The position numbers and the translations under genes were made by a program. DNA of 64,000 nt from Opitutales bacterium. Its GTDB lineage: Bacteria; Verrucomicrobiota; Verrucomicrobiia; Opitutales; PNEW01. Numbering within the stretch: the first letter of the stretch is position 1; every line of letters begins with the position of its first letter. This document shows positions 17,296-40,835 of the stretch, piece after piece. The notes beneath the pieces are model-generated. The model did no database searches and had not been told where the DNA came from. It saw only the letters and a list, made by a program, of their open reading frames with translations. The stretch is from NCBI GenBank assembly GCA_965197745.1, contig CBDANS010000005.1:416001-480000 (forward strand). The letters are read 5' to 3'.

Positions 17296-18613
17296 TGGTC
17301 GTGACCACGAAAACTGGGACAGTTGAAAAGTTAGTCTGGGTAACCTAGAAAGGACTCAGACAATGAAAGGCAAAAGATACACGACCGAAGAGAAAATACG
17401 GATGCTGCGGCAGGCGGACAAAGGGAAAACGATCCTGGAAGCATGCCGCGAGAACAACATTAGCGAACAGACTTTCCACCGCTGGAAGCGTGAGTTTGGG
17501 ATGATTGATGTCGACCAGGCCAAGCGGATGAAGGAACTCTTTGAAGGAGAACGCGCGGTTAAAACGGATGCTGGCGGACAAGCTGCTGGGGATAGAGATC
17601 CTGCAGGAGACCCTCGAAAAAAAACTGTAAGCCCTGGGCACAAGCGGCAAGTGGCAGAGAGACTTGTGGCTCGGGGCCAGTGTTCGATGCGAGCGGGGTG
17701 CCGGTACTTTCGGCTGCACCGTTCCACCTATGCGTATAAGGCGAAGCATCCGGATGCTTGGTTAATGAAACTGAAGGCGGCAGTAAGGCGGTTATCACGG
17801 CAATATGCCAGGTGGGGCTATCCGAAGATCACGAAGCTGTTGAAAGACGAAGGCTGGGAGGTGGGTAAACGTCTCGTGCAAGGTCTACGACGCGAACTGG
17901 GCTTGGCGATCCCCCAACGCAAGCCAAGACGTCGGGGCAGGGGTGTTTCCACCGGGCTGCCGACCAAGGCCGAACATCCCGGCCATGTTTGGACCTGGGA
18001 TTTTATCCACGATAAGACGGTCCGCGGTGGCAGTTTAAAAATGTTGACCGTGCTCGATGAGTACACCCGCGAGTGTCGAGTGATCCATGTTGATCGCCAT
18101 ATCAATGCGGAAACGGTGCGCGGTATCATGCAAAAACTGCTTGCCCGTCATGGGCCGCCACAATATATTCGCAGTGACAACGGTTCCGTTCCGAGGAGCG
18201 AAGCGACGACATGCGAAGCCATTCATTGAAAAGGAATTGAGAGCCTGGCTAACTGCGATGAAAATCAAAACCCTCTATATCGAACCAGGAAGCCCTTGGC
18301 AGAACGGATACATCGAATCGTTGCATGCCCGTTTTCGCGAGGAGTGTTTAAACCGTGAACAGCTATGGACTTTGACCGAAGCCCGCGTGGTGATCGAGGA
18401 CTGGCGCTGGCTTTACAATAATGTCCGACCCCACCGCAGCCTCGGCAATATCACCCCACGGTGCTTCGCTGAAGACATTAATACCGAAGGCTTGGGCTCC
18501 ATTCGGGCTACGCCCTCATTGCGCCCAAGCCTTGACTTCCTCTACCAACTTAACTTCAACATTAACCTCTCCAGACTAACTCTCTCGGTGGACCAGTTTA
18601 CGTAACCCGATCA
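17296..18613 (+). mobile_element. IS3-family insertion sequence, inactivated
   Basis: Imperfect terminal IRs TGGTCGTGACCACGAAAACTGGGACA and (reverse complement) TGATCGGGTTACGTAAACTGGTCCA; orfA/orfB with an A8 slippery run at 17617-17624; no flanking direct repeat (CTAG vs CCTT). Confidence 0.88.
17363..18605 (+). pseudogene. IS3-family transposase orfAB, disrupted
   Basis: HTH orfA (MKGKRYTTEE...) and DDE motifs WTWDF, SDNG, PGSPWQNGYIES. A one-base frameshift lies near 17540 and a 32-nt insertion at 18189-18220 breaks SDNGSEF. Confidence 0.9.
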
Positions 18614-39154: not shown

Positions 39155-39252
39155 TTAACAATTAACGGCTGATCGTTAAAGCGATAGATCATCAGCGAGT
39201 GTCGGGAAGAGATAATTATGGAATGATTGGACCCCGTTTTTCGTACCAATTA

Positions 39253-40249
39253 TTAAGTGAGAGAGTTCCCGGGTATTAATGGTTTTAGGATTGATGTATA
39301 TGAGAGATCTTGGCGAAGTGAGGGCGTAGCCCGAACGCGGCCAAGATCTGAAAGGAATGTGACAAACTCTTGTGGGCTTTGAAAGCCTAAACGACTGTGG
39401 GGATGATCATGGTTATAGGTCTGGCGCCATTGTTCGATTACAACTTGTGCTTCAGCCACGCTGAGCAACACTTCACGGTTCAAACACTCATCGCGTAAGC
39501 GGTTGTGAAACGACTCGATGAAACCGTTTTGCCAGGGACTGCCCGGATCGATATATATCGCCTTGATCTTTTTGTCGGACAACGACTGCTGCACTTGATG
39601 AGCAATGAATGGCTTCGCATGTCGTCGCTTCGCTCCTCGGAACACTGCCGTTGTCACTACGGATATAGCTGGGAGCTCCCTCCTTTTCAATGGCCTCGCT
39701 AAGCACAGAGAGGACATCCGATGAGGGGAGTTCACGAGCGACCCGGATATCCAGACATTCACGCGTATATGTCTTCGCTTCGCTTGAGTGTCGTCGCTTT
39801 CAGCTCCTCGGTACATCGATCAGAGTCATCATCTTTAATGGACCGCCATGGTCTGTGCGATCATGGACAAAGTCCCAGGACCAAAGGTGATTGCGACCGG
39901 TTGCTTTAGTAGGCGACCCCGTAGAGACCCCTTGACGGTGTCTACGCTTTTTAGGTGGCTTTACCTGCAACCCTTCTGAACGTCGTACTGCCTGAACAAA
40001 CTTCCTGTTTGTTGTCCAGCCTTCCTTTACGAGCAAGGCACGGATGCGCCGGTAACCGTAGCAGGGATGTTCCCAGGACAGGGTTATAATCCGCTCGGCC
40101 AACCGCTGAGCTTTCTTACTGGCCTGCTTGGGCTGGTAGCTGAAAGTTGACCAACTGAGGCTGAGGTAGGAACAAGCCCTTCGCAACGAGCACAGCCCTC
40201 TCTCAGCCGCATCTTTTACTACTCGCTTCTTCTGCTTGGGGCTCACCAC
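39253..40249 (-). pseudogene. IS3 orfB (DDE) disrupted by two short insertions
   Basis: WSWDF, IDEYTRECL, SDNGSEF and PGSPWQNGFIES can be recovered after removing the inserts at 39771-39813 and 39611-39642. Confidence 0.9.
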
Positions 40250-40509
40250 TTTTTTGACAGCGTTTCCTCCATTACCTGATTCTTAAGCATTTGATCAGCG
40301 AGCATCTTCTTCAACTCGGTGTTTTCTTTTTCCAGCTCTTTAAATCGCTTCGCATCGGCTAGTTCCAAATTGCCATACTTTTTACCCCAGCGATAGAAGG
40401 TCTGTTCACTCACGTTGTTGCCTCGGCAGATTTCCTCTACCGTTTTTCCGGTATCGGCTTGCCGCAGTATTGCGATGATCTGTTCTGTTGTGTATCTTTT
40501 TCTTTTCAT
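40243..40509 (-). CDS. IS3 orfA (HTH plus leucine zipper)
   Basis: MKRKRYTTEQII...VSEQTFYRW..KY...KELEKENTELKKMLAD. Confidence 0.92.
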   Translation of the reverse strand: MKRKRYTTEQIIAILRQADTGKTVEEICRGNNVSEQTFYRWGKKYGNLELADAKRFKELEKENTELKKMLADQMLKNQVMEETLSKKW

Positions 40510-40835
40510 GAGGTTATCTGTTTATCCCGATAACCTCTCTCTGTTAATGATACCATTTTTGGGGGTCACTCCAGGAAAGAGGAGCGACAAACGGGGACTA
40601 ATATGATGTTCCTTTATTTTTTTTTAAAAATTAAATGTCATTCAAAAAATTTAAGTATTCTGAACTGTATTATTATCAAAAACCTGTAAAAAAAATAAGG
40701 TTTAAATTTCATGCTGGTATTATATGTAAAAATAAGTATAAACTATGGTATATTTAGATATTATTTTTATTTTTAATCCTACGATTAATAGTTGAATTAA
40801 ACTTTATTAAACAGGTATAGGATAAAAAAAACCGT

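Follow-up and report, generated by a model that had tools for sequence, protein, structure and literature searches.

REP sequences and REPINs are short multi-copy hairpin repeats, extragenic and clustered round a RAYT gene, that are thought to move in single-stranded form without duplicating their target. MITEs and the Rickettsia palindromic elements are non-autonomous short elements, some of which lie within coding sequence. The SDR repeats of Nostoc and its relatives, reportedly described by Elhai et al. in 2008, are said to be repeats of tens of nucleotides with hairpin potential that occur inside genes and inside other repeats and have no known transposase. tRNA-linked repeats (TLRs), to which RtT of E. 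coli and its kin belong, have been known since 1978. For E. coli, the portion of PMC8144298 available to us reports 22 TLRs at ten loci, having 18-19 bp in common with the upstream RNA and no known function. Translational bypass inserts, known from T4 gene 60 and as the byps of Magnusiomyces mitochondria (PMC5009743, in its available part), are hairpin blocks of 27-55 nt that interrupt reading frames at many places. Here, we describe modules of 31-43 nt that interrupt transposase genes of IS3-family insertion sequences (IS) in a 64,000-nt stretch of DNA (the window) from an Opitutales bacterium of the Verrucomicrobiota (assembly GCA_965197745.1, contig CBDANS010000005.1, positions 416,001 to 480,000). 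The assembly, G000 below, comprises 4.45 Mb in 7 contigs and is 92% complete; the window is C5:416001-480000 in its numbering. They belong with the very small insertion repeats that lie dispersed in genomes and are little understood, and they have a defined target and a layout akin to that of the TLRs. Our search of the literature, which took in few subscription journals, found no publication describing such inserts, and the links of the modules to TLRs and to the tRNA T-loop are, as far as we have seen, new.

The first-pass annotation of the window had pointed to one 32-nt sequence, TTCCGAGG...GAAGCC, in the same codon of two IS3 transposase genes. Both occurrences are exact matches; beyond them the window holds no match at up to 3 mismatches, and 0 of 100 shuffled sequences matched. 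The two copies, their host elements and the related sites within these are located as follows.

17296..18613, plus strand: IS3-family element of lineage f1a, 1318 bp (1287 + 31), with ends TGGTCG...GATCA.
18059..18061, plus strand: empty site B of the f1a copy, a GAG codon (gtgctcgatGAGtacacccgc, 32 copies).
18189..18220, plus strand: type A module, 32 nt as first delimited (G + 31 nt + CA), an exact match in the Glu codon of SDNGS-E-F, lineage f1a.
18342..18344, plus strand: empty site E of the f1a copy, a GAG codon (tttcgcgagGAGtgtttaaac, 35 copies).
39228..40568 (ends approximate), minus strand: IS3-family element of lineage f2a, with orfA at 40243-40509 and orfB interrupted by modules B and A.
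39487..39489, minus strand: empty site E of the f2a copy, the GAG of LRD-E-CLN, where other copies have a 36-nt type E module.
39611..39642, minus strand: identical type A module, an exact match in the same codon of the diverged lineage f2a, present on contigs of four public runs.
39771..39813, minus strand: 43-nt type B module, which interrupts the Glu codon of LID-E-YTRE in that f2a element, stays in frame and brings a TGA.

Empty relatives in this genome read AGT GAA TTC, AGT GAG TTC or TCC GAG TTT at site A, the position of the type A module, and intact 306-aa relatives from other assemblies have SDNGSEFIAHQ there. The Glu codon after SDNGS is therefore split, with a net gain of 31 nt and a shift of frame, as the annotation had proposed; its loss of one A and the notation X^AA -> X + module + CA express the same thing. 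In the f1a copy the open reading frame (ORF) at 17363-18229 stops 9 nt past the module. In both copies the upstream frame continues as VPRSEATTCEAIH after the insert, and the rest of the protein lies one base out of frame. In the f2a copy the ORF at 39800-40249 terminates within the type B module, whose exact empty counterpart in the genome is ctgatcgatGAAtatacgcgt.

The host elements differ clearly from each other, another point on which the annotation was right. Alignment of f1a with f2a by blastn is limited to a 197-nt stretch surrounding the insert (75.6% identity) and to 123 nt of orfA; nonsynonymous divergence (dN) in orfB is 0.50 and synonymous divergence (dS) is saturated. The codons 5' of the insert are GGT TCC in one element and GGC AGT in the other, and identity on the 3' side spans only 9 nt (CATTCATTG). 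The insert of the two window elements is not part of a long shared conversion tract. Pfam identifies rve, HTH_Tnp_1 and HTH_21 among the f1a ORFs and rve_3 in f2a. The organization is that of IS3: in an empty copy of a further lineage, f1b, orfA occupies nt 32-331 and orfB is open from 214 to 1275 in the -1 frame, with an A8 run at 321, and the window copies have the same orfA/orfB layout. Terminal inverted repeats of the TG...CA type are found as TGGTCGTGACC...GACCA at 13 loci. Aligned to its 1287-bp empty relatives, the f1a window element has a TTT patch in orfA at 17540-17542 and an A-run frameshift site near 17617-17625.

Comparison of filled with empty sites yields a single insertion rule, X^AA -> X + module + CA, mostly at G^AAT and with no target duplication. 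Thus at site A the sequence AGT GAA TTC becomes AGT G[...GAAGC]CA TTC; at site B, GAT GAA TAT becomes GAT G[...GAAGA]CA TAT around the 43-nt module; at a fourth site, F, in the motif PW-Q-NG, TGG CAA AAC becomes TGG C[...ATAA]CA AAC; and the tRNA-type target GGTTCGAATCC becomes GGTTCG[...]CATCC. Net gains are 31 nt (A), 42 nt (B), 35 nt (E) and 42 nt (F). Each site has its own single variant, of 32 nt at A, 43 nt with an in-frame TGA at B, 36 nt at E, and 43 nt without a stop at F, where this in-frame relative is present in about 15 copies. The type F module (TACCGAGCGAAGCGACACCTCAACGAGCCAAAGCGAGAATAAC) substitutes the middle base of the Gln codon and adds LPSEATPQRAKARIT, for example at C7:1686882 (-), outside the window; an IS66 gene of another genome (L035) has an in-frame module similar to it.

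G000 has 73 copies of the 32-mer when up to 3 mismatches are allowed, and 51 of these match exactly. All lie in IS3-family transposase genes, of several diverged lineages, and by their flanks 73 of 73 are at the SDNGS-E-F codon. Counting all variants, modules interrupt transposase genes more than 100 times in this genome. The core pattern of the family has 119 matches in G000 and is present in 17 of 301 sampled Verrucomicrobiota genomes, all 17 from the same order, with at most 7 matches in each of the 16 others; a control search with the reversed pattern returned 0. A census of three sites, made by tblastn with four orfB segments, gave the following counts.

Site A (SDNGS-E-F): 91 anchors, 73 filled, 15 empty, 3 unresolved.
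Site B (LID-E-YTRE): 103 anchors, 32 filled, 54 empty, 17 unresolved or odd.
Site E (LRD-E-CLN): 100 anchors, 12 filled, 82 empty, 6 unresolved or odd.

In eight copies all three sites are empty. The empty sites taken together read GAG in 116 cases and GAA in 20, and a C follows 9 of 10 GAA at site E; in long ORFs genome-wide, GAA is twice as common as GAG (43.2 vs 21.7 per 1000). As the IS copies are not independent, the excess of GAG at empty sites is a pattern and not a test. About ten copies of a third IS3 lineage (ITVDNGPEFAGKVL; e.g., C6:548249-548368 and C7:987865) have an empty site A with GAG in all copies seen, and a relative of this lineage in Cerasicoccus arenae (L031) is filled at site A with a different module variant.

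In lineage f1b, 4 empty and 9 filled copies are found at 13 different loci with a dS of 0.005. Empty and filled copies differ in the insert, in GAGTTT as against G..CATTC, and at a few single sites. Two empty copies have the intact, canonical form of an IS3 element; in the two others a GA-to-TTT patch fuses orfA and orfB into one 415-codon frame. This patch, which turns CTC GAG AAG into CTC TTT G AAG and makes a ribosomal frameshift unnecessary, is found at C7:1901266-1902552 and C4:136859-138145. All four combinations of filled or empty with GA or TTT are present, and the f1a copy of the window is one of those with the patch. Within f1 the module variant TGCAAAGCC follows the IS tree, and descent therefore explains part of the pattern.

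Exchange between copies has left its own signatures. Lineages f2a and f2b have diverged to a dS of 0.40 and a dN of 0.06 and show 0 differences in the 75 nt of their modules. Their background difference of about 7-9 per 60 nt falls to 0-3 over module A and about 130 nt downstream of it and to 1-2 over module B, and rises to 13-16 between the modules; in the segment after module A dS is 0.05, as compared with 0.45-0.90 beside it. One copy, at C6:1393203-1393328 (+), has the 5' part of module A joined to the 3' end of module E with loss of the 120 nt between, which shows that modules act as recombination substrates.

All variants share the sequence T(T/A)CCGAGGA, then RC, a loop of 3-6 nt, GY and GACGACA, followed by a second part around GCGAAGC. 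The first hairpin has two Watson-Crick pairs under the 3-6-nt loop, with an invariant purine-rich strand on either side (CCGAGGA and GACGACA), and the second is very variable in length, having shrunk in type A to GCGAAGC. The R:Y pair of the first hairpin covaries, being G-C in 24, A-T in 8, G-T in 2 and A-C in 2 of 36 distinct sequences; the search pattern admitted only R and Y at these positions, and both A-C cases, from high-GC genomes, are probably chance matches. In other Opitutales the second part is longer, GA-CCGG-[inner stem-loop]-CCGG-A(C/A)C, and each of its two stems shows compensatory changes: CCGG/CCGG is replaced by CCGA/TCGG, and the inner stems include CGC/GCG, TTCCGC/GCGGAA and TCCCGC/GCGGGA. 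This long form has 6-nt inverted ends, GTTCCG...CGGAAC, of which the 32-mer is missing the right-hand one.

The proposal in the annotation that the insert folds into a hairpin capped by GCGAAGC is weakly supported for this short form. GCGAAGC is found at two places within the insert, and the covarying pair and the longer relatives lend comparative support. The short form, however, folds weakly: by nearest-neighbour calculation the 32-mer does no better than shuffles, with a z of +1.35 as DNA (-1.6 kcal/mol) and of -0.13 as RNA (-6.3 kcal/mol), and thermodynamic folding of types A, B and a long form gave nothing above shuffles. With the folding energies of type A no better than shuffles, structural support comes from comparison instead. 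DNA mini-hairpins of the sequence GCGNAGC are described as unusually stable in the accessible part of PMC13037366, and such stability is omitted from the energy model used here.

The family is not confined to IS3 genes. Contexts were drawn from a scan of one genome per species (at least 37 loci) and a scan of metagenome contigs (23 loci), with genes typed by Pfam. Among the matches listed, hosts in other Opitutales comprise IS5-like, IS66, IS630-like and group II intron genes, tRNA T-loops and TLRs. An rve gene of another IS3-type lineage, in Cerasicoccus, has a different variant at the same SDNG-P-E-F codon; genes with DUF772 and DDE_Tnp_1 have the module in YYGLSDEET-E-F; IS66 genes have one module in sense and in frame and one in antisense; and further modules lie in a DDE_3 gene, in an rve_3 gene (antisense) and in the reverse transcriptase (RT) gene of a group II intron. 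At one locus (L018) the site falls between codons. Among 138 ORFs sent to Pfam, which were the longer part of 255 candidates from 88 loci, there was no interrupted housekeeping gene; housekeeping genes merely terminate near intergenic modules. Five pattern matches in long intact ORFs of high-GC genomes (L016, L022, L027, L030 and L101) were ascribed to chance and are not counted among the hosts.

Also among the matches listed are units behind tRNA genes, in which the module, often with an inverted tRNA tail ahead of it, has ...GGTTCG on one side and an exact repeat of that tail on the other, and intergenic hairpins of the same kind. In one genome (G141) an array of about ten tRNA genes (L067, G141:C23:27881-29316) contains two genes with a 49-nt antisense module in the T-loop at ATTTG^AA, located as follows.

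Positions 581-701 and 796-924 of L067, minus strand: the two tRNA genes with a module.

ARAGORN calls these two genes, tRNA-Pro(TGG) and a 76-nt tRNA-Leu(CAG), only once the module has been removed in silico. Modules thus occur in unrelated genes and in T-loops, in both orientations, and insertion must have happened many times.

G000 itself has three units of the tRNA type (type C), one behind a tRNA at C5:236.4k and two in tandem behind tRNA-Asn at C6:355.5k. In each, the module follows GGTTCG and precedes 18 nt that repeat the tRNA 3' end exactly, starting at T-loop position 58; the tail copies are ATCCTGCCCGGGCAGCCA and ATCCTAGCCGGGCAGCCA. The Rfam RtT model (RF00391) scores these units at 23.7 bits, the best value for any unit here and below the gathering score of 45, the shared parts being GGATGAGAAC, GCGAAGCG and the tRNA tail. 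The tyrT region of E. coli K-12 has the same construction, GGGGAAGGATGAGAAG...AAGGTTCG, then 70 nt, then AATCCTTCCCCCACCACCA: its units have GGATGAGAA ahead, then AAGGTTCG, a 70-nt GC-rich insert holding GCGAAGCG, and AATCC...CCA, and the type C units are alike. The two features that define TLRs, a position downstream of a tRNA or rRNA gene and a copy of its tail, are found in the type C units only and not in the window 32-mer. Additionally, the literature consulted describes TLRs neither from within protein genes nor as insertions. Modules and TLRs therefore have a common layout, which does not establish the 32-mer itself as a member of that family.

Other known systems resemble the modules in part. 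Like SDR repeats, the modules are short (31-43 nt) and dispersed and cause no target duplication, with one base replaced; they differ in sequence and phylum and in having an X^AA target, base replacement, a two-hairpin plan and near-exclusive residence in mobile-element genes and T-loops. Unlike REP and REPIN, they are nearly all intragenic in G000, their conserved strands do not form a simple palindrome, and no module lies by the Y1_Tnp gene. MITEs and Rickettsia palindromic elements are 100-400 nt long, as against 31-60 nt, and the modules lack a target duplication and in most copies break the frame. We rejected assignment to the MITEs in view of the absence of target-site duplication from every filled/empty pair, the 6-nt inverted ends being confined to the long form. 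The modules share with translational bypass inserts their size and their interruption of frames at many places; bypass inserts lie in essential genes and their bypass has been shown, whereas sites A and E do not conform to a take-off and landing scheme and some modules are antisense. A self-splicing intron or known ribozyme was rejected, there being no Rfam match at E <= 1 in window positions 17000-41000. We take CCGAGGA-stem-GAC to resemble the hammerhead core, two core positions of which differ. An integron attC site or the att scar of a tyrosine recombinase was likewise rejected, as the modules show no integrase association and no duplicated overlap at their junctions.

The anatomy, target rule, filled/empty polymorphism, host range and conversion signatures observed here are best explained, we judge by a modest balance of probability, by ultra-small non-coding insertion modules that parasitise mobile-element genes and disrupt transposases, the window 32-mer being the shortest form, type A, of their family. 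In this model insertion would take place at the DNA level through a trans-acting enzyme, and the archetypal target would be GGTTCG^AATCC, a T-loop sequence found in tRNA genes and again in the tRNA 3' ends repeated within TLRs. The IS3 motif GGT TCC GAA TTC resembles this target. Inside a gene the module breaks the frame (A by +31 nt, E by +35 nt) or brings a stop (B), and it survives mainly in dispensable multi-copy genes of mobile elements. The interrupted transposase genes are probably inactive, their elements having been moved in trans or hit after multiplication. In this genome the modules appear to have multiplied mostly by riding on IS copies. At a given site they also seem to have moved from one copy to another, through short-patch conversion or a step akin to homing, which keeps them identical while their hosts diverge. 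The occurrence of all 73 type A copies at one site, with one variant per site, makes their spread look like hitch-hiking on IS combined with transfer between homologous sites and not like free hopping. The tiny site-directed mobile hairpin that the annotation had suggested therefore holds in part: there is an insertion, recurrent and unchanged at one codon in diverged lineages, and module relatives at further positions, among them genes of different transposase families and the T-loops of tRNAs, make a tiny site-directed insertion element a fair reading, while the restriction of type A to a single site speaks against free movement.

If true, the modules would be among the smallest site-specific insertion elements known, living almost only in other mobile elements as parasites of parasites able to switch off transposases. 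The layout in common with TLRs would give a testable idea for E. coli repeats that have gone unexplained for decades, namely insertion at T-loop position 57/58, and the filled/empty pairs, the contrast of GAA with GAG and the many near-identical IS copies would make this a system suited to an enzyme hunt and to a read-through test in bacteria. A bolder proposal, which we put forward tentatively as a possibility, is that the modules and the TLRs (E. coli RtT and kin) are products of one undiscovered mobility system, in which a trans-acting enzyme would write two-hairpin modules of 30-60 nt into T-loop-like DNA at X^AA, and which would have run through the IS3 population of this lineage like a gene drive, sterilising GAA copies and sparing GAG alleles.

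Several observations weigh against the parasitic-module model. Type A has never been found at a new site, and one variant per site is unlike free transposition from a master copy. The exact type A 30-mer had 0 matches in the metagenome contig collection. No enzyme for the insertion was found: the single Y1/HUH gene of the genome (Y1_Tnp, C6:163380-163706) has no module within its 3.3-kb locus, and 12 tyrosine-integrase loci have no module at their borders except those inside nearby IS3 copies. The 32/32 identity of type A between f1a and f2a ends exactly at the 5' edge of the module and is poorly explained by descent or ordinary conversion; this is the main reason why a site-directed step is kept in the model. 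Furthermore, selection appears to have acted on the interrupted genes: dN/dS is 0.12-0.18 between lineages that have modules A and B in common, 0.06-0.25 in most segments downstream of the break, and 0.13-0.41 among copies within clades f2a, f2b and f1a. Family f2 has about 30 copies, none of them uninterrupted in this 92%-complete assembly, and several f2 lineages, 0.1-0.4 apart in dS, have an in-frame TAG in orfB (TTG CGA AGG -> TTT TAG AGG, e.g., C7:771347 (-)).

These points bear on the rival explanations. It could be that one old insertion per site was inherited and homogenised by ordinary conversion, with no present mobility of the module. Such a history accords with the single variant at each site, with the passage of TGCAAAGCC down the f1 tree, with deep f1-like copies whose type B modules have decayed by 3-5 changes, and with the conversion tracts, mosaic copies and A-E deletion copy; it leaves unexplained the 32/32 identity of type A between f1a and f2a, elements with a dN of 0.50 and saturated dS in orfB and with flanks that are different as far as the module edge, the 0 changes in 75 nt between f2a and f2b, the other variant at the same codon of a different Cerasicoccus IS3 lineage, and the presence of the family in unrelated genes and T-loops in both orientations. 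We consider it unlikely, though deserving of some weight. The annotation's statement that shared ancestry fits poorly with an unchanged insert stands accordingly for the comparison across hosts of saturated dS and not for f1, where descent accounts for part of the pattern. The annotation had also raised a host process that disables transposases, and a host-encoded defence writing the module into conserved transposase motifs would agree with the finding that all interrupted protein genes identified are those of mobile elements (transposases of five families and the RT of a group II intron), that the sites are conserved motifs adjoining catalytic residues, and that G000 has 119 copies against at most 7 in its relatives. 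This idea found no direct support and is in our view very improbable: the same module is present in tRNA genes, TLRs and many intergenic hairpins, the target is a short DNA word and not a protein motif (C^AA in a Gln codon at site F, a position between codons at L018), 8 copies have an unfilled GAA at site B, the analysis turned up no candidate gene, and purifying selection alone would leave a bias toward mobile genes. That the modules are an artefact of assembly or sequencing has nothing in its favour and a negligible chance of being true; 73 copies stand in different flanks, mutated variants follow the IS tree, and modules are present in a separately deposited near-identical genome record and in contigs of four runs from three studies, so that they are not an artefact of one assembly.

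A different possibility is that the IS tolerate the modules or even make use of them. The modules would then be skipped in expression through bypass, frameshifting or RNA removal, and transposase would still be made, at a low, self-limiting level. The dN/dS of 0.12-0.18, extending to segments after the break, and the scarcity of nonsynonymous changes among recent copies would be expected of genes still in use, as would the expansion of f2, including bursts of 10 and 15 near-identical copies, without an uninterrupted copy here. If nothing but the 31, 42 or 35 nt of the module is deleted, all three sites regain their frame, leaving GCA; type B has an in-frame AGC TGA with an in-frame AGC 7 codons on; and mitochondrial bypass needs no perfectly matched codons, according to the available part of PMC5009743. 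These features notwithstanding, we consider this explanation unlikely. The three sites would require three different events (+1, read-through, and -1 or +2), and A and E have no matched take-off/landing pair; modules are antisense in IS66, rve and tRNA genes, where no sense-strand signal could act; the signal of selection could stem from intact relatives elsewhere, before the inserts arrived; and an in-frame remnant in another assembly, described below, resembles a mended frame. Finally, each of the three stop codons TAA, TGA and TAG terminates long ORFs here (503, 375 and 175, respectively), and reassignment of a stop codon was discarded as an explanation. Matching of take-off and landing codons, an internal Shine-Dalgarno sequence with ATG (the ATG being in the third frame) and restart as a split protein were read by eye and dropped.

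A spliced or excised form was sought in contigs of two RNA libraries and two other runs aligned to f2a, and no joint lacking 31, 42 or 35 nt was found; since contigs miss rare forms and RNA libraries may contain DNA, these data neither support nor exclude removal. Modules A and B are covered without interruption by contigs from the RNA libraries, and a type E module lies at exactly the 39487..39489 site in one contig of these libraries. Wherever a joint skips module A, its two sides are separated by CT or GATAAACT; such joints are GAG empty alleles of related copies, not products of removal. Intact relatives do exist: f1b has them in G000, and module-free 306-aa relatives in other assemblies are 90-93% identical to the first 149 aa of f2a orfB. 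In another assembly an otherwise intact f2-like transposase (P0007, 313 aa, 42 members) has a 7-residue in-frame insert, SDNGS-VPRSEAS-EF, which looks like a shortened remnant of module A after a partial deletion that mended the frame.

Some further observations concern the surroundings of the modules. Complementarity between module tails and target flanks showed nothing consistent. In Rfam searches, 15 loci from relatives gave mainly tRNA, plus scattered sub-threshold matches to unrelated families. At the position of the f2 TAG codon the window f2a copy keeps the CGA form, near 40180-40195 (-), and a close relative has CGG, which suggests that the TAG patch has moved between f2 copies. Four of the 12 tyrosine-integrase genes (C4:136043-136489, C7:1906203-1906739, C5:22795-23316 and C7:1065131-1065586) lie about 0.5-1.2 kb from IS3 copies or fragments.

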